Assembly (NCBI RefSeq): GCF_006345805.1
Contig: NC_043013.1
Span: 30,070,001 to 30,134,000 of the forward strand
Reading direction: 5' to 3'
DNA: 64,000 bases
DNA from: Octopus sinensis
Taxonomy: Eukaryota
Part shown: positions 2,951-63,500 of the stretch, piece after piece
How the letters are laid out: each line of letters begins with the position of its first letter
Numbering within the stretch: position 1 is the first letter of the stretch
The notes under the pieces: generated by a model
Database searches by the model: none
What the model was told of the DNA's origin: nothing
The model's input: the letters and a program-made list of their open reading frames with translations, nothing else
Translations under genes and position numbers: made by a program

Positions 2951-2955
<5 letters not shown>
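2461..2955. repeat. Spacerless ~397-bp palindrome (2461-2857, centre 2657/2658) plus ~95-bp unique tail, between (TA)n tracts; probable non-autonomous PLE derivative
   Basis: Arms are reverse complements apart from about 3 single-base indels; centre caagattaatcttg. Confidence 0.8.
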
Positions 2956-2990
<35 letters not shown>

Positions 2991-3603
2991 TTAATGGTGA
3001 AGGGCAGTTTATAGGGTTACCCTGGGTTTACCCTCATAAAGGGTACCTTTATGGCATATCTTCAGAGTCTAAGACCTATTGGCCTATGGCCTCTTAAAAA
3101 ATGAGGTAGGGGAACGATACGGGTATAAACAATGGGGATTATCTCCCTTTGGTACAGGTCATTGGCTTCAGCTGTATCGTCCACCTTCATTCACGTCACC
3201 TGTCGGCTATGAGTGTAAAAGGTAAGTGGTTATCCCCTACTCTCATCAACAATCAATCCCCAGCTAATATCGCTATCGATATGTAACATTGCAATTATGC
3301 GGTTCCCAAAACGCTAACAGGAATCACCTGAAATGCAAGCATGTCCGAAAATCTCCGTTGTGGAGTTCAGTATGATCTCTGGTACGCGCGAATATCATGC
3401 ATTCGGCTACTTATAGCATTTAGCGTCTCGTTCCATTTATGTACGGACCCGGACGGTGGAGGATTTTCCATGATATCGAGTATAGAATTCCATTTTCTTT
3501 CAGTTGCAAAGTATGGCTAGCCAGCGGAGACCCTGAAAGAGTATCTATGGTTGGAAAGACGTTTCTTAAAGGAAGTTCCCGCGCATCCAATGTATTTCTT
3601 TGG

Positions 3604-4800
3604 ATGCATGGTGTCGGTGTTGTGTCTATTACTGCTGCTGTTGTTGCCGTTCTTGCTGCTGTTGTTATTGCTGTTGCTGTTGTTGCTGCTGTTGTTATTG
3701 CTGTTGCTGTTGTTGCTGCTGCTAGTGCTGCCGATGATGGTGCTAGAGCTGGGGATGTTGGTGGTGGTGCCACTGGTAGTGTTACTGCCTCTGCATGTGT
3801 TGCCGCTGGTGTATGTGTTGGTGTTATTGAGACTGCCGAGGTTGATGTTGCTGCCGCTGTTGCTGCTGCTGCTGCTGCCGCTGCTGCAGGCGCTGTTGCT
3901 GCTGCCGCTGATGACGCTGCTGCTACTGCTGCTGTTATTGTTGCTGGTGGTGTCGACGATGCTGCCGTTATGGTCGACGAATATGTTGCTGCTCTAGTTG
4001 TTGATGGTGCTGTCGTCAAGGATGTTGCTGGGGCCACTTGTGATGGTGAAGGTGGGTGTGGTGGCGGTGTTGGTAATGTTATTGCCGAATGTGGAGGGGG
4101 CGCTATCGATGTTATCACAGTAGCCGCAGGTATTACCATAAATGTTATTATTGCTATTATTGTCATCTTCCCCGGTGGTGGACGTATCGTTCTCTTTGAC
4201 AGGGCTACCATTATTCTCGCCCATGCCGGTGCCTCTACTTGGGACGCTGCTGCTGCTTCTGCTGTTGGTATTGCGGCCGATATAGTTTGGTCTGTTACTG
4301 CTGCTATGAGAGCAGGCGAGCTGGCAGAAACGTTAGCACGCCGGGCGAAAGGCATAGCGGTATTTCGTCTGGCTTTACATTCTGAGTTCAAATTCCGCCG
4401 AGGTCGACTTTGCCTTTCATCCTTTCGGGGTCGATAAATTAAGTACCAGTTACGCACTGGGGTCGATGTAATCGACTTAATACCTATGTCTGTCCTTGTT
4501 TGTCTCCTCTGTGTTTAGCCCGTTGTGTGTAATAAAGAAATAGGTATGCTGTCGTGCCTGCTATTTGTAAGGCTGGCGTTGGAGGCAACGTCACTGTGGT
4601 CAATGTTAATGATGGTGGTGGTGTAGTCAGGGGTGAAGTCGGCACTGTCGGTGTTGGTGTTGTTGACGTTCGTAAGGCGGTTCGATGCGGTAATGGTGGT
4701 GGTGGTGGTGGTGGCGGTGTTGCTGGCTCAGTTGATGGTTCTGCACCCGTGTCTACGGTTGCTATGATTGCTATGGTTCCTGCCGGTGGAATTGGTTGGA
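3604..4800 (-). repeat. Low-complexity trinucleotide region (gct/gtt/ggt) inside the PLE endonuclease
   Basis: Reads Asn/Ser/Thr/Gly-rich in the frame of the YIG motif. It produces the overlapping Ala-, Val- and Leu-rich ORFs in the track. Confidence 0.8.
4312..4544 (+). mobile_element. tRNA-derived SINE family A (tail type 1) inserted in the PLE
   Basis: ggcgagctggcagaaacgttagcacgccgggcgaaa head, B box gagttcaaattcc, body gcctttcatcctttcggggtcgataa, tail taaagaaatag. Confidence 0.9.
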
Positions 4801-5479
4801 TTTGCCCGCACCTCAACTTGAAAGACGACGCCTTTGGTTGCGCAGCGGCTTTCTACTGGGTAAATGTCGCGGATCCTGCATGAACAACCCATCTCTTCAC
4901 GTTGCTTAGGGGCGCTAACTAAGATACTCTTAGTGCTAGGGGCACAGCTAAACGAGACACTAAAGTTGTGCCTGAATGAGGGTATACCTATGGGAGTTAC
5001 TAAAGTGTTTGTCTATTAAATTTAGGAAAAGTCTACCTACAGGCGTTATAGTATTAAGGGAGAAGGGGAAAAACCAAATTGTAATTCTGTGGTGTTTCCT
5101 TCTGCAGATGTTGAGTTCCGGCATATAGGAGATGCGGTCCTTGAACCCGCTGGCGGCTAGGGCCTCGTTATGTTATGGGGCTGCTGCGTCGAAGGCCTCT
5201 TGGTTAGAGGAAAGGCTTGAAATCCTCATAATGAAACCATTTACCAGATGGTTGAAGAATACTGGAATAGAATTTCCCCAAGAGCTCCTACAGAAACTTT
5301 GTCTCTGAGGGATAGCAAGGAGGGTTCAAGCACTTTGGAGGGAAACTATTGGATACCTAAGGTTAGAGGTAGTAAACCGCAACCCACATAAATCCTACTT
5401 GGAATATCACCGAACCTGAACGAAACTAAAATAATAATAATAATATTTCTAATTCTCTTTAAAAAGATAACTGTTAATA

Positions 5480-6060
5480 ATAATCATTTCTATGAAAAGC
5501 ACAAGACCTGAAATGTACGGGAAGGGGACTTGTAGATTACACCAGTGGTACTTATTTGATCGATCCCAGTGTTTCACCGCTACTTATTTCATCGGCCCCG
5601 AAAGAATAAAAGGCAAAGTCGACCTCGGCGGAATTTGAACTCAGAACGTAAAGACGGACGAAATATCACGAAGCATTTCGCCTGGCGTGCTAACGACTCT
5701 GCCAGCTCGCCGCCTTAATAATAATAATAGTCATAATAATAATCCTTTCTTATTTATTTATTGCCCTGAACGGGCTAAACGTAAAAGGGACAAACAATGA
5801 CAAAGTGATTAACTCGATTACATCGACCCCAGTGCGTAACTGGTACTTTATTTATCGAGCCCGAAAGGATGAAAGGCAAAGTCAACGTCGGCGGAATTTG
5901 AACTCAAAACGTAATAGCACGCGAAATTCAGCTAAGCATTTCGCCCGGCGCGCTAACGTTTCTGCCAGCTCGCCGCCTTAATAATAATAATAGTCATAAT
6001 GATAATCCTTTCTGCTATAAACACAAGGCCTGCATTTTGTGGGAGTGGGTGAGTGGATTA
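5480..6060 (-). mobile_element. Cluster of SINE family A copies (two near-full copies plus a tail fragment)
   Basis: Two reverse-complement heads gccagctcgccgcctta at about 5701-5717 and 5964-5980; shared body. Confidence 0.85.
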
Positions 6061-11490: not shown

Positions 11491-11695
11491 CTATACAATA
11501 TATTTCATTTAACAATAGCTCTCCATTATTCTGTTCAACTTTCGTATGTTTAAATGTATGTACATATATTTATCTTTATATGTACACACAGAGAGGCATA
11601 CACACACAAACACACATATACACACACAATAACACACACAGAATTACAATATTTACATATATGCAAACATACATATTATGATAAATATGTATATG

Positions 11696-14518
11696 ACCTC
11701 ACACCCCAGGTCCTTTTGTCATACTCAAACTCGGTGTGTGACACACTAATTGTACACATAAGGCAACTTGATGTAGTTGTGTGTGCTACATATCGCCCTC
11801 CAGATGCCCCAAGTCATATGGGCAAGTTTGAGGACTGCCTTTTAAAAATAGAAGAAGTTCTAACCACATTAGAACAACACATAAGTGTACTTCTCATGGG
11901 AGACTTCAATCTACCGAATGTCAGATGGCCCGAGGGCCTTTCTCTCCCAGGAATGACAAGATGTGAACGAGGACAGGCGAGGTCCCTCCTGTACATGGAG
12001 CAAGTAATACTCCAACCAACCAGAGCGGGTAACACACTGGATCTCTGCTTCACAAATAATATGGATCTTATTCATAATGTGAAAGTGACACCGACACTAC
12101 TCTCGGATCACAACATGGTAGAGCTGACCATGTACGGGCCAAAAGAGAGCACGGACATGCAGCCTACAAGAAACCCTCAGAATCTTTCCAGCTTGAACTT
12201 CAATAAGGCAAACTGGAAACAAATTGAGAAAGAGATCCTCAAACAAAACTGGCCTGAATGTCTCTCCTCGCCGGACATCGACATGATACTTCAACAATTC
12301 ATGTCCGTAATGCAAGCCATATGCTACAAATGTGTCCCAGAGAGAAAGGCCACTGTACACTGTACACAAGAACAAAATCCCCAGAGAGAGAAAAATTTTA
12401 ATGAGACGGCGCACAAAAATCTCAAATCGCCTAAACAAACAAATTGAAAGCAGTGAAAAGTCCCGCCTGAAAATAAAGCTGTTGGAAATTGAAAATTGTC
12501 TGCAACTCTCCCATGAGAAGGAAAGAGCAGACAAAGAAGCCTGGGCTATAGACAACATAAAAACTAACCCCAGAGCTTTCTACAGGTATGCCAAAGAAAT
12601 AGCTACGGTGCACTGTAGGATAGGGCCACTCCTTGAAAAGGATGGCACACTCACAGGAAAACCAATGAGGGTAAGTGAAATACTGAATGAACAATTCAAG
12701 AGTGTTTTCACTCCACCCCTTGGGCATTTCCAAATCAGCAATCCAACTGACTTTTTTTTACCACTGCAGATATAGAATCAGAGGCGGCGACGTTAAATTA
12801 CATCGATATAAAGGAAGACGATGTAATAAAGGCTATAGATGAAATGAAAATAGACTCAGCTATTGGCCCCGATGGATTCCCGGCAATCCTCCTAAAAGTA
12901 TGTAAGAGAGTCTTAGCAAGACCACTGCAGTTCCTCTTTCAGAGCTTCCTTGCAGCTGGCAAACTTCCAAGAAAACTGAAGGAAGGTAAAATATGCCCTA
13001 TTCATAAAGGAGGTAGCAGAGCGGAGGCCAAGAACTACAGACCTATCTCTCTGACCTCACACATCAGCAAGGTCATGGAACGAATAGTCAGAAGGAAACT
13101 AATCACCTTCCTTGAAGAAAATGACTTGCTGCCTGACACCCAACATGGTTTCCGACCAGGAAGAAGCTGCTTAACTCAGCTCCTGCAGCACTATGACTGG
13201 GTGCTGAAACAACTGCTCAACCACTCAAATGTGGAAGTCATATATCTCGACTTCGCAAAGGCCTTCGATAAAGTCGATCATGGAATGATATGTCACAAAC
13301 TGCGTGATCTTGGCATAGTTGGAAAACTAGGAGAATGGCTTCACGACTTTCTGAAGAATAGAAGTCAGGTGGTAGTAGCCAATGGGGCAACTTCCATTAG
13401 CACGCAAATAGTGAGCGGTGTTCCACAGGGCACTGTTTTGGGACCACTACTGTTCATAATGGCCCTCTCAGACATGCCCTCAGCCACGCGGAGAGCCACG
13501 ATCACAAGTTATGCAGATGATACAAAAGTTTCACTGGCAATACAGAACCCTGAAGACCCTAGGCCCCTGCAATATGAGCTGGACGAAATATACAAGTGGG
13601 CTGAAAAGAATAGCATGCAGTTCAATGCTGAACAGTTTCAAGCTTTATACTATCAGCATGCAAAACTGAATGCAATACCCAAGGAATACACTGGACCCGG
13701 AGGGATTGCAATCCCAGAGGCACAATCAGTGCGTGACCTGGGTATTCACATGAGTGATGACGCGACCTTTCATGTACATGTTGCTAAACTGACAATGAAA
13801 CGCAGACGGCTGGCTGGATGGATTCTTAGAACCTTTAGAACAAGAGAACAAGAAACCATGATGGTCCTCTGGAAGACACTTGTCCTAAGTCACTTTGACT
13901 ATTGCTCTCAGCTATGGTCACCATCCAGTGTCAAGTTGATCACAGAACTTGAGGCGATCCAACGAAGCTACACGAAGAAGATAGCCTCTATGCAGAATGT
14001 AAGCTACTGGGAAAGACTCAAGAGATTAAAATTATATTCCCTGGAGCGTAGGCGGGAAAGATATGCCATAATATACATCTGGAAGATCCTGGAGGGAAGT
14101 GTCCTGAACTTTGGCATCGAGAGTTACGCAAATGCCAGAACTGGGCGCCACTGCGTGGTGCCTAGGACTCCAAACTTGCCATCAAGATGTAGGACAAGAT
14201 TCTGTGATAGCCTGGGCTTCCGAGGCCCACAGCTCTTCAATATCCTCCCGATGAACCTGAGAGACCTGCATGGGGTGGATACAGATGTCTTTAAAATGGA
14301 GCTGGATCTCTTCCTGTCAGGTGTCCCAGATGAACCAACTTCACGGCAGGAGGGGCAGATGAGGGCAGCTGCATCGAACTCTCTCATGCACCAAATAGCA
14401 GTTGCTAGAAAGCCTCCATGAAGTGAAACCAAGTAGCAACACCAAATGGCGGTGCCCCAGCATGGCCGCAGCTCATAAGCTGAAACTAGAATCAATCAAT
14501 CAATCAATCAATCAATCA
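11696..14518 (+). mobile_element. 5'-truncated CR1-clade-like LINE: APE endonuclease plus reverse transcriptase ORF2 with two frameshifts and an (AATC)n tail
   Basis: APE motifs YRPP, MGDFN, PTR.GNTLDLCF and SDH. RT motifs NYRPISL, QHGFR, YLDFAKAFD, GVPQG and YADD. 3' tandem aatc repeats at about 14490-14518. Confidence 0.92.
12844..14421 (+). CDS. Uninterrupted reverse transcriptase portion of LINE ORF2 (525 aa)
   Basis: ORF track; all RT motifs including YADD. Confidence 0.85.
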   Translation: MKIDSAIGPDGFPAILLKVCKRVLARPLQFLFQSFLAAGKLPRKLKEGKICPIHKGGSRAEAKNYRPISLTSHISKVMERIVRRKLITFLEENDLLPDTQHGFRPGRSCLTQLLQHYDWVLKQLLNHSNVEVIYLDFAKAFDKVDHGMICHKLRDLGIVGKLGEWLHDFLKNRSQVVVANGATSISTQIVSGVPQGTVLGPLLFIMALSDMPSATRRATITSYADDTKVSLAIQNPEDPRPLQYELDEIYKWAEKNSMQFNAEQFQALYYQHAKLNAIPKEYTGPGGIAIPEAQSVRDLGIHMSDDATFHVHVAKLTMKRRRLAGWILRTFRTREQETMMVLWKTLVLSHFDYCSQLWSPSSVKLITELEAIQRSYTKKIASMQNVSYWERLKRLKLYSLERRRERYAIIYIWKILEGSVLNFGIESYANARTGRHCVVPRTPNLPSRCRTRFCDSLGFRGPQLFNILPMNLRDLHGVDTDVFKMELDLFLSGVPDEPTSRQEGQMRAAASNSLMHQIAVARKPP

Positions 14519-16442: not shown

Positions 16443-18083
<1,641 letters not shown>

Positions 18084-37559: not shown

Positions 37560-38650
37560 ACAGTTACCTAGTGCTAAACTAGTACTTATTTACCGACCCT
37601 CACATGTAAAATTGATGTCAGCGGAATTTGATATCAGAAAGTCAAGTGTTGGAAGAAATGCTTTAAGCATTTTGTCCGACGTGCTAAGGTTTCTGCCACC
37701 TCACCACGTTAATAATCCTTTCTACTATAGGCACAAAGTCTGAAATTTTGGAGAGAGGCTTGTCGATAACGTAGAAGCGGGTGTGCATAGTTGTTATTTT
37801 CTTCATTGACCCTGAAAGCATGAAAGACAACGTCGACCTCGGCGGAATTTGAATTCAGAACGTTTTTTTCTTGGGATAATCATTTGGCCAATATTTGATT
37901 TTCTACTCTAGGCACAAAGCCCAAAACATTGGTGGGATGGGGGCCAGTCGATTTGATCGACTCAGTACGCAACTGGTACTTAATTTATCGACCACGAAAG
38001 GATGAAAGGTAAAGTCGACCTCGGCGGAATTGGAACTCAGAACATAAAGACGTACGAAATACCTATTTCTTTACTAAACACAGATAGGACAAACAAGGAC
38101 AGACAAACGGATTAAGTTGATTATATCGACCCCATTGCGTAACTGGTACTTATTTAATCGACCCCGAAAGGATGAAAGGCAAAGTCGACCTCGGCGGAAT
38201 TTGCACTCAGAACGTAGAGGCAGGCGAAATAACTATTTCTTTATTGACCACAAGGGGCTAAACATAGAGGGGACAAACAAGAACAGACAAACGGATTAAG
38301 TCGGTTATATTGACCCCAGTGCGTAACTGGTTCTTATTTAATCGACCCTGAAAGGATGAAAGGCAAAGTCGACCTCGGCGAAATTTGAACCCAGAACGTA
38401 ACGGCAGACGAAATACCTATTTCTATATAGCCCACAAGGGGCTAATCACAAAGGGGACAAACAAGGACAGACAAACGGATTAAGTCGATTATATCGACCC
38501 CAGTGCGTAACTGGTCCTTAATTTATCTACCCCGAAAGAATGAAAGGCAAAGTCGACCTCGGCGGAATTTGAACTCAGAACGTAGCGGCAGACGAAATAC
38601 CGCTAAGCACTTCGCCGGGTGTGCTAACGTTTCTGCCAGCTCGCTGCCTT
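37560..38650 (-). mobile_element. SINE family A cluster including a head-to-tail array of headless ~185-bp units
   Basis: Repeated junction cgaaata(c/a)|ctatttc at about 38060, 38232 and 38417; single head at about 38600-38650. Confidence 0.9.
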
Positions 38651-60682: not shown

Positions 60683-62517
60683 CTGAAGTTGTCTGTGTGT
60701 GTGTGTGTGTATGTGTGTGTGTGGCAGGGTTGGTAGCCTTCAACTAATACTATCTTCTCCGAGACCCTTTGGCGCAAGTTGACCAAAATTGAGAGTATGA
60801 TAGAAGAGAAGGCTTGCTCTTTATTCCGTAGAAGAAAGAATTCAAATGGGACCATGTTAAAACTAAAAATTATTTACATCAAAAAAGTGCTTTTTTTCTA
60901 TGAAAATCTCAGTTTTTAAAGATTTTTTTAACTGCTTTATCACCATTTTTCAGTGTATTTGAACCATAAAAATGTTCACTTTAAGAGAATAACAAGCTAC
61001 ATAATGCAAATTCCAATTCTAAAGGGTCGAAAATAAATTTTTTGTGAAGTCATTGGTTTTGAGCGAACGACGGATCAGCTGATCCAATGCAGAGGAGTAA
61101 TGTTCGCTGCGTGGATGCACTAATTTTCAAGGTCGTCAACTGCTACAGCGTTGAGTACAATTCAGCAATTTCAATCGATTTTTTAAGTGTACGAAAGAAC
61201 ATTTTGCTCAGTCATTTGGACTGCACTGCCTTTGTATGCTGCAACATATTATAGCTGCTGTTAGCTAAAAAAAAATATACCAACGTATCTACGGCTGTCT
61301 AAAAATTTATCTTTTGCACTATACAAGTAATACTATACAAATAATCGGCATAAACTTCGTTTAGACCGAAAGGCTGCAGCTGTACGAGCGCTGCTGAGAA
61401 CGATGTTCAACGTGAACTACGTCTGAGTAGAAACGCTGCCTCTACGGCATTTGCCAGAGCTGCAGAGAACGATGCTCAACGTGAGCTGCGTCTGAGAAGA
61501 GACGCTGCTTCTACTGCATCTGCCAGAGCTGCAGAGACAGCAGATAACAGATCCAATCTACTGGGGGTGTTTCTCAGTACAGGGCCAATAGGCAAGGTAT
61601 TTCGAGAGCAGTAAAGTCACGATGATGTGAAACTTTCTTGAATGACCAACGCTAAATCAGTGTCCTTATAATACTGTACATAAAGTTATTTTGTACATGA
61701 TTAATATTCTCCATCATTGGAGCTGCGGTCTTCTGTTTGGTATCTCGGGCAACAAAAGATGTAACGTTTATGCTTCGTTCATTACTCTGATGATGTTCAC
61801 ACTGAACTTGAAACACTTTCTTAGAGTAGCTCATGCTGAGCATCGTTCCCAGCAGCTCTTGCAGCTCGTGCAGCTGTAGCTTTTCGGTGAAGATGAATTC
61901 TACGCCGATTATTTTTGTTGGTTTAAGTGATTCTTATTTGTGGGTATGGCAGTCGTAGCAGTTGTGCGATCTGCACGCTGTTACTATCTACGATGTTCAA
62001 GTCAAACCTTCAATGGATATATTTTGATTTTACAGATTTCTTTTAGTTATACGTGATGTAAAATAGTCGATTTTATTCATTTTACAGGTACAACCACGAT
62101 TCATGTTGCCCACTCGTTTGGCTTCAAACTAGCATTTTGTTTTGTGTTTTTGTAACCACAAACTGTTCTTATTAAGGTTTTGGAGTTTCCTGTACTTTTT
62201 CTTAATGAATACTGTTACAGTGTTCACTTCTTAACATATTTTCAGTGCAGTTCGAAACTTGAGCTTAATTTTGCTTTAAATCTACGGGTAATGTTTTTCT
62301 CCATAATGTTAATAGAAGGAATATTAACCAACAATACCAACAATTGAAGTCGGCATTACACAGTTGCAGTACATTCAGAGCAAACTCGAGCTTCGCCACA
62401 CTATACTTTTATTCTTAGATTGAAACTATGTCAAAACTTTGTTAACGCGACATCAAAGTCTGCCGTTTTAAGCGCAACTGAAAAACAAACTCGAGCAACG
62501 CCGGTCTGTACTGCTAG
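60672..62517 (+). mobile_element. Non-autonomous Helitron (~1.85 kb) carrying remnants of 23-aa repeats
   Basis: 5' tatatataactgaagttgtctgtgtg resembles 26709; 3' caaactcgagcaacgccgg...CTAG|T; internal 69-nt repeats at 61390-61563. Confidence 0.65.
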
Positions 62518-62726: not shown

Positions 62727-62751
62727 ATATATATATATATATATTATATAT

Positions 62752-62842
<91 letters not shown>

Positions 62843-62843
<1 letters not shown>

Positions 62844-63500
62844 CAGGTTCGGGCAGATAAATTGAGAACATTTTTACAATGTATAAAACTGGTTACAATA
62901 CTAAAATATTGGTAGTAGACAGATACAATTTTAATGTAACATTGTTTACGACACAAACATTTATCACTCAATATGGCTGCCCCCTTTTGGTCAATTATTC
63001 CCTCCACACAACAACAAAATGTATTTGCAGTTTCCACAGTGATGCAGGTCTTCAAACTGTTGACACTCAAGTGTGGTGAAGCATTGGTCTTTGCTTGAAA
63101 TATTCCACATAAAAAGTAATCAAGAAGGCTAAGATCTGAGTTATTACCAGGCAAGATGTTGCCCCTCACAAAAAATGGCACCTTCTCACCATTGAGGGCC
63201 TGTGTTACTTGTGAGTCATGGCTTGGTGCAGAATCTTGGATAAGCAACACATTGTTAAGTTTAAACTTCTGCTCCATCCAAGGTAACAGAGAGTTCTTCG
63301 GGATGTTCAAATACTCCTTTGCACCGATCTTCAAGCCAGACACAATAAAATATGGACCCATGACACTTCCATCACTTGCCATGGCTCCAAATACCATCAC
63401 AGAGGCAGCATTCTTAGTTTCAAACACGGAACGTCAGAAGGGTTATATGCAATCACTTGAGAATTCCTGCGATTCATCTCAGTGCCCACAGTGAACTTCT
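62843..63500 (-). pseudogene. DD37D (maT) transposon 3' part
   Basis: SVMVFGAMASDG...IQD followed by exactly 37 aa and then D (SDLSLLDY); TIR-like caggttcgggcagataaattg next to TA. Confidence 0.8.

Follow-up and report, generated by a model that had tools for sequence, protein, structure and literature searches.

How do the two signature motifs of a GIY-YIG nuclease, normally separated by a short turn, come to lie more than a kilobase apart in a Penelope-like element of Octopus sinensis? The question is raised by a locus on NC_043013.1 (assembly GCF_006345805.1), of which positions 30,070,001–30,134,000 of the forward strand were analysed; this whole stretch of 64,000 nt is referred to below as the window. 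An earlier note on this DNA described a zinc motif (CSCR...C), a GIY-equivalent GVVF and, about 1.2 kb further on, a YIG. The motif coordinates (C-S-C 4886–4878, GVVF 4832–4821 and YIG 3594–3586, minus strand) and the distance are correct, with 1229 nt from the F of GVVF to the Y of YIG. The zinc motif is also rightly positioned, with the exception that its third Cys is Tyr in the window copy (CSCRIRDIY). The minus strand reads GCSCRIRDIYPVESRCATKGVVFQVEVR at 4889–4806 and KYIGCAGTSFKKRLSNH around the YIG.

The element lies on the minus strand and runs from about 5256, in the RT thumb where it is 5′-truncated, down to 2987, where (TA)16 follows (Table 1). Since the third linker Cys is mutated to Tyr and the C-half of the nuclease carries a frameshift near 3520 as well as stops, the copy is dead; it is a decayed, 5′-truncated Hydra-clade Penelope-like retrotransposon. 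As described previously, each half of the spacer is in frame with its flanking motif and is interrupted by a single stop. The two halves combined consist of 22% Ser, 20% Asn and 15% Thr, and both stops are private, as aligned sister copies have sense codons at these positions. The 230-bp SINE between the halves removed about 5 nt of target at insertion. Its site is empty in five of five aligned sister copies, indicating that the SINE is younger than the spacer, and these copies read on there in one continuous frame, which settles the frame across the SINE that had been left uncertain.

Table 1. Features of the Penelope-like element and its surroundings, in window positions.
Feature	Positions	Strand	Basis
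(TA)16 microsatellite at the element 3′ end, usual Hydra-clade target	2955..2986		TRF; TA-rich runs follow the equivalent end point in sister copies (by eye)
3′ terminal region with hammerhead-like core, CTGAAGA 3065–3059, long stem II	2987..3085	-	By eye
GIY-YIG C-half: YIG 3594–3586, FKKRLSNH, WKILHRPGPYING; frameshift and stops	3290..3594	-	YIG, R, H, CxxC, E, N and CxH conserved in subfamily majority
Asn/Ser/Thr-rich spacer 3′ half, 239 codons, YIG frame, private stop TAG 3996–3994	3595..4311	-	Frame and sister-copy alignment
Secondary 230-bp SINE	4314..4543	-	blast and empty site in sister copies
Spacer 5′ half, 93 codons counted from F, GVVF frame, private stop TGA 4730–4728	4544..4805	-	Frame and sister-copy alignment
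Nuclease first beta-strand GVVFQVEVR, GIY-equivalent	4806..4832	-	Predicted strand 40–50 in long-spacer model
CxCX5C-type linker motif (third Cys is Tyr here) and next Cys	4842..4886	-	Motif as in passages of PMC8557442
RT thumb end and RT-EN linker, 5′ truncation; protein similarity up to ~5310	4887..5256	-	blastn vs sister copies, tblastn

Several other features were observed in the window. The 230-bp SINE has 18 blast hits (at 4314–4543, 5559–5974 and 37946–38644, among others), some of which make up a tandem array of 184-bp units. At 11554–14421 (plus strand), three overlapping ORFs resemble, by eye, the AP-endonuclease and RT of a CR1/L2-like LINE that is frameshifted and little decayed. 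Fragments like the C-terminal zinc-knuckle region of a non-LTR retrotransposon (16922–17374, plus strand) and like a Tc1/mariner transposase (62744–63433, minus strand) were also recognized by eye, and a 69-bp unit of coding-like sequence is repeated 2.1 times at 61390–61537.

Penelope-like elements of the Hydra clade are characterized by a CxCX5C linker, CxxC and CxH motifs around the conserved E and N, RWK and DKT (in place of DKG) in the N-terminal part, (TA)n targets and the lack of a CCHH motif (passages of PMC8557442). Based on these motifs, and on a likeness to reference sequences judged by eye, the window element and its relatives are placed in this clade, which bears out the Penelope-like identity proposed in the earlier note; the clade assignment and the graded series of spacers described below are additions to it. 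A linker motif of the type CSCRIRNSC is found in all ten subfamily majority sequences, and CKLCIAER...LNSRTE...CLHF in most of them, including that of K, the subfamily of the window copy. There is no CCHH motif, and no conserved Cys pair was found between the two strands. In line with the single ORF of the clade, in which RT is followed by a C-terminal GIY-YIG, copies L003 (subfamily K) and L122 can be matched to a full-length homologue all the way from residue 1 to the nuclease, and one K copy, like several copies of G and of I, has the RT from its first residues. The motifs MRWK and SDKT occur in L142, L122 and L059; the K copy L003 has decayed KWK and NKT. Pfam GIY-YIG matches weakly in 15 of 90 homologues and is absent in three long-spacer ORFs, as it also is in two short-spacer ORFs.

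Elements of the Hydra clade also have a canonical hammerhead ribozyme near their 3′ end. In the octopus family, TA-rich runs lie beyond the end in most long-spacer copies with a located end, and a hammerhead-like CTGA[AT]GA...GAAA with a long stem II occurs in several long-spacer subfamilies, both as judged by eye. An Rfam scan of eight loci gave no hammerhead match at E ≤ 1 and only low-score microRNA-type matches, which fall on microsatellites. In the hammerhead-like core of the window copy (3065–3030, minus strand), the GAAA of sister copies reads GTAAA.

The nuclease of Hydra-1_Obim from Octopus bimaculoides (PMC8557442) is, by eye, almost letter for letter like that of a group of O. sinensis copies with a 27-codon spacer. 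Features that the window's family has in common with Hydra elements are RT with C-terminal GIY-YIG, CxCX5C, RWK, DKT, CxxC, CxH and the (TA)n target. The two tyrosines of Hydra-1_Obim are separated by 27 N/S/T-rich residues, compared to about 13–16 in the other Hydra rows shown in the supplementary alignment and 70–350 in the long-spacer copies. Published Hydra elements are mostly shorter than 3 kb, and the passages and supplement parts of PMC8557442 make no mention of a long nuclease loop. A younger Hydra family with a normal 15-codon spacer is present in the O. sinensis genome as well, represented by L235 (2–1108, with a 369-residue open frame) and L198, which are about 2% apart in their flanks.

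The extent of the spacer was determined by DNA and protein searches of the O. sinensis genome, which yielded 250 loci (a further 20 matches, mostly loci already in the set, were left out). These include 111 distinct copies with both nuclease halves and 34 with the first half only; the analysis rests on the 92 of the 111 that could be placed with a precision of 4 residues. The sample leans to relatives of the queries, with 150 scored of 2,978 and 150 of 15,462 first-look candidates. The spacer measures 210–1229 nt in 76 of the 92 mapped copies and 43–82 nt in the other 16. Copies scattered over many chromosomes have homologous spacers at an identical site, with 67–83% DNA identity, and copies free of the SINE were found. 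Among 150 short-form database homologues, from a search that favours short forms, both tyrosines could be aligned in 144 and lie 10–30 residues apart, which argues that the spacing in the window is not a matter of chance. The short GIY-YIG spacing of the superfamily is thus broken here, at 70–350 codons. The spacer occurs across the family, shares its coding phase with both motifs, and increases in length by degrees along the tree. The papers found by literature search, together with passages of PMC13282606, PMC7943196 and 10.64898/2026.07.22.740005, describe no long insert inside a Penelope-type GIY-YIG core.

The 230-bp SINE and two other SINE types have inserted in many spacers of this family. 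Four loci (L050, L054, L120 and L155) are near-identical and carry the same secondary insertions, the mark of segmental duplication or assembly redundancy and not of transposition.

A ladder-like tree was obtained from 676 flank columns, rooted on the 15-codon family. The 27-codon group is the sister of all long-spacer families, which form a clade with support 0.996. Median spacer length rises from 27 codons in this group to 109–152 in subfamilies A–E, 172 in F, 193 in G, 233 in I, 296 in J and 307 in K, and is correlated with node depth (Spearman 0.90, over 11 non-independent groups). The earlier note had reasoned that normal spacing in other copies of the family would make the insert peculiar to a dead copy; in the tree, none of the short-spacer copies falls within the long-spacer subfamilies, and this refutation fails. 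Subfamilies A and B (L189, L249, L247, L204) form a separate long-spacer branch, whose spacers have more Thr, Asp, Pro and Arg and do not resemble those of C–K; this branch is possibly an independent expansion.

The coding character of the spacer was probed in 73 long-spacer copies, after masking of three SINE types and removal of three segmental duplicates. Spacer codons tend to begin with A and end in C, and their strong codon-position bias keeps register with the flank on either side. A codon-phase HMM, with 12 open spacers as its training set, was applied to the 61 other copies, and the phase agrees with the GIY strand in 50 and with YIG in 49 (chance 1/3). Phase shifts occur at 2.5–3.1 per kb in spacers vs 2.0 and 5.0 in the coding flanks. 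No shift site is common to two copies among the 33 copies of subfamilies A–F; the shift sites common to three G and I copies sit at the spacer end, where the phase is forced by the script.

Spacer length shows no overall enrichment for multiples of three (29/29/18 of 76 by length modulo 3); lengths are in frame in 16 of 27 spacers of 200–500 nt and in 13 of 49 above 500 nt. Stop-free spacers that are in frame from strand to strand number 13 of 76 and span 70–210 codons. Stop-free stretches are weak evidence by themselves because AAY, AGY and ACY codons resist stops by composition. Frameshifting indels make up 21 of 68 shared and 87 of 193 private indels, a modest difference (Fisher p 0.046). 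The earlier note proposed to ask whether the insert is present and frame-preserving in the consensus; simple majorities are open with the frame preserved in five of ten groups (A, B, E, F and the 27-codon group) and shifted in the other five (C, D, G, I and, internally, K). None of the copies combines a long spacer with an intact full-length ORF; stop-free spacers reach 210 codons at most, and no spacer of the 270–350-codon class is open end to end. A frameshift at the C-run of WFAPPF, seemingly shared by all majorities, proved to be variable homopolymer length among copies, and a programmed frameshift is not claimed.

Database proteins were also searched. A profile search returned 16 proteins, one of them with a long spacer, and word-index searches with the C-half of L205 gave no matches. 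The predicted O. bimaculoides gene model P0151 contains about 220 residues of subfamily-I-like spacer in frame with a C-half; one database gene model of the family takes its name from the low-complexity part only. Because the catalytic residues lie downstream and splicing is not evident, the spacer must presumably have been translated in the copying masters.

Selection on the nuclease was examined by comparison of subfamily majorities, computed for the 5′ flank downstream of the WFAPPF C-run. In the C-half, dN/dS is 0.06–0.21 in eight pairs among C–K and 0.32 for C–A and A–B; in the upstream flank of the same pairs it is 0.10–0.33 among C–K, 0.29 for C–A and 0.43 for A–B. In the control, where copies are compared with their own majority, values are 0.52 for the C-half and 0.68 for the 5′ flank (off-frame stretch included). 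This pattern of substitution indicates that the nuclease half behind the spacer stayed under purifying selection. Subfamilies C, E, F, G, I and K all retain YIG, the helix FKxRLxNH, CxxC, E, LNSRTE and CxH; the majority sequence of D, drawn from 5 copies, has Lys at the catalytic Glu, and the tail of A was not recovered. Together with the dispersed insertions, purifying selection suggests that the nuclease retained nicking activity. The loop itself has dN/dS of 0.28–0.75 between subfamilies, which overlaps the 0.26–0.71 within one subfamily, so no residue-level selection is claimed there; its residues show no constraint beyond composition.

A structure prediction, proposed earlier as a check, returned a confident GIY-YIG core that spans both halves and a loop of low confidence. 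AlphaFold2 was run on L144, which has a 137-residue spacer and is not of the 300-residue class, with an alignment dominated by short-spacer homologues. The model has pLDDT values of about 86–97 in the core and 34–64 in the spacer, with predicted strands at 40–50 and 178–188, compared to 42–52 and 58–68 in a short-spacer control. The arrangement typical of the superfamily, with GIY and YIG on neighbouring strands of a beta-hairpin and conserved Tyr, Arg, Glu and Asn, is predicted to persist. VIA-align superposes L144 on the I-TevI catalytic domain with Z 8.8 and rmsd 2.4 over 90 residues drawn from both halves (model range 40–270), and the control with Z 9.6 and rmsd 2.3 over 89 residues; T4 EndoII and UvrC are next best for L144. 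The I-TevI domain (PDB 1ln0) totals 92 residues, and the fit of the long-spacer model to it requires about 125 low-confidence residues to be omitted. The predicted fold common to long- and short-spacer models is thus that of I-TevI, T4 EndoII and UvrC. As the short-spacer homologues on which it depends imply the hairpin from the outset, the model speaks for compatibility and is not proof. A PDB sequence search did not find GIY-YIG, Foldseek returned Hpy188I and EndoII at E 0.7–9 only, and the ESM Atlas gave short GIY-YIG-type clusters at 0.93–0.94 with a recognition value slightly below threshold, which is a lead only.

The spacer is therefore best read as a tolerated, stepwise-expanded and predicted-disordered loop, likely translated, in a likely functional GIY-YIG nuclease, and on the sequence evidence this reading is considered probable. 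Of the two explanations in the earlier note, the very large disordered loop in the active element is the one that stands, as likely, on the grounds of family distribution, phase, selection and model. Expansion would have started from a short N/S/T-rich hairpin turn such as that of Hydra-1_Obim (27 residues vs about 14) and proceeded by stepwise triplet slippage and internal duplication over many rounds of retrotransposition. Selection would have purged frameshifts, because the catalytic Arg, Glu and Asn sit downstream in the same ORF, and would have affected the loop residues little. The two nuclease strands would still pair, with the loop extruded from the tip of the hairpin.

The simplest view is that this expansion was tolerated and largely neutral. 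An adaptive version, in which a prion-like Asn/Ser domain of up to about 300 residues grew out of the catalytic hairpin because it was useful, e.g., in condensate or RNP assembly (the element has no ORF1/Gag) or in escape from silencing factors, is considered improbable. If it were true, the subfamily ladder would record an adaptive ratchet that could be replayed stepwise in the laboratory.

A different origin for the spacer, namely that template switching captured it from an Asn-rich transcript of the host, at once or in a few steps, and that its length changed later, is judged unlikely to about the same degree. Capture has been proposed as a model for rotifer Penelope inserts (passages of PMC3846280). 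In the octopus sample, spacer length jumps from 27 to about 90–150 codons with nothing between 27 and 70 (the two shortest of the long spacers seem to have arisen by deletion, within G and I), and since this step to about 100 codons is without intermediates, an initial capture event may have taken place; the difference of the A/B spacers from those of C–K points the same way. However, later growth was graded, and 9 of 20 tested spacers contain internal duplications of at least 60 nt, which are absent from all codon shuffles of the same spacers. The turn had also already been lengthened by N, S and T in Hydra-1_Obim and in 3 of the 144 short-form homologues, whose three longest turns (23–30 residues) are N/S/T-rich. 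Capture would bear on the origin alone and leaves room for a translated loop.

Somewhat less probable is a supply of nuclease in trans, whereby the loop was tolerated to about 200 residues and subfamily K, with the longest spacers, had a nuclease that was frameshifted or weak and depended for its copying on that of sister families. In four of six K copies the phase changes inside a span of 4 codons at a single C-rich run, no K copy open end to end was found, and the same genome harbours short-spacer Hydra families (L235, L198 and the 27-codon group). Nevertheless, the four shifted copies differ in local sequence at the C-run, the other two (the window copy and L010) remain in frame there, and a comparable C-run in the RT linker is likewise variable in length among copies. 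Furthermore, the K majority retains all catalytic motifs in the C-half, where its dN/dS is 0.13 vs G and vs I, the same value as for I vs G.

The other explanation in the earlier note, a retained spliceosomal intron removed before translation, is very improbable. Penelope-like elements can retain introns (passages of PMC3846280), and a GT follows GAG or GAA in 59 of the 73 copies, as in the donor-like gag|gtgcgg singled out near 4812. This GT is the conserved Val codon of YxAEV, however, and neither a donor of the GT[AG]AG type nor a T-rich tract with a YAG acceptor is found in any of the 73 copies. T accounts for 16% of spacer nucleotides, and for 11% within the final 45 nt, vs 32% in the window, and the strong codon-position bias, in step with both flanks, also speaks against an intron. 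No spliced retrocopy was found by pattern or in the tree, and the family's first strand lies within 50 codons in none of 43 C-half matches. One of these 43 matches, read by eye, belongs to a different short-spacer family. Four read runs (one presumed RNA, three of unrecorded kind) carry mostly SINE signal with all listed junctions in the SINE, and are uninformative on splicing and expression. The spacer is least of all a microsatellite expansion or insertion that arose after insertion in the window copy alone, an idea whose chances are negligible: simple triplet repeats do occur within the spacer and the copy is decayed, but the long spacer in 76 of 92 copies, its homology across dispersed loci and the younger age of the SINE all contradict it, as the earlier note had surmised in setting post-insertion decay aside.

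The tolerated loop has parallels in other systems. Long Asn-rich low-complexity inserts are tolerated as enzyme loops in Plasmodium proteins; these occur in host genes of an AT-rich parasite, whereas the octopus spacer belongs to a mobile element and is built of A-first, C-ending codons.

A closer likeness is offered by Penelope ORFs of the rotifer Adineta vaga, which, as in the octopus family, contain several hundred in-frame Asn-rich codons: inserts of 460–554 aa between RT core and thumb, and of 1.5 kb between RT and EN, with 25–30% Asn (PMC3846280). These inserts arose where short (AAY)n runs pre-existed and were attributed to capture by template jumping, and the copies that bear them were judged still mobile (PMC3846280). 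The rotifer inserts lie between domains or subdomains in very low-copy families of the Penelope/Poseidon group, whereas the octopus insert lies inside the signature hairpin of the nuclease in an abundant Hydra-clade lineage and comes with a graded series and a test of selection. The passages of PMC3846280 left unsettled the mobility of Penelope-like elements with long Asn-rich inserts and the origin of the inserts. Both questions become directly testable in the octopus, as its genome has a series of 15, 27, 110–150, 190–230 and 300 residues, many copies and a signal of selection.

For the family itself, the biology may be that of neutral drift in an extinct lineage. More broadly, the results suggest that the tip of the GIY-YIG hairpin accepts very large insertions, which matters for the annotation of these nucleases.
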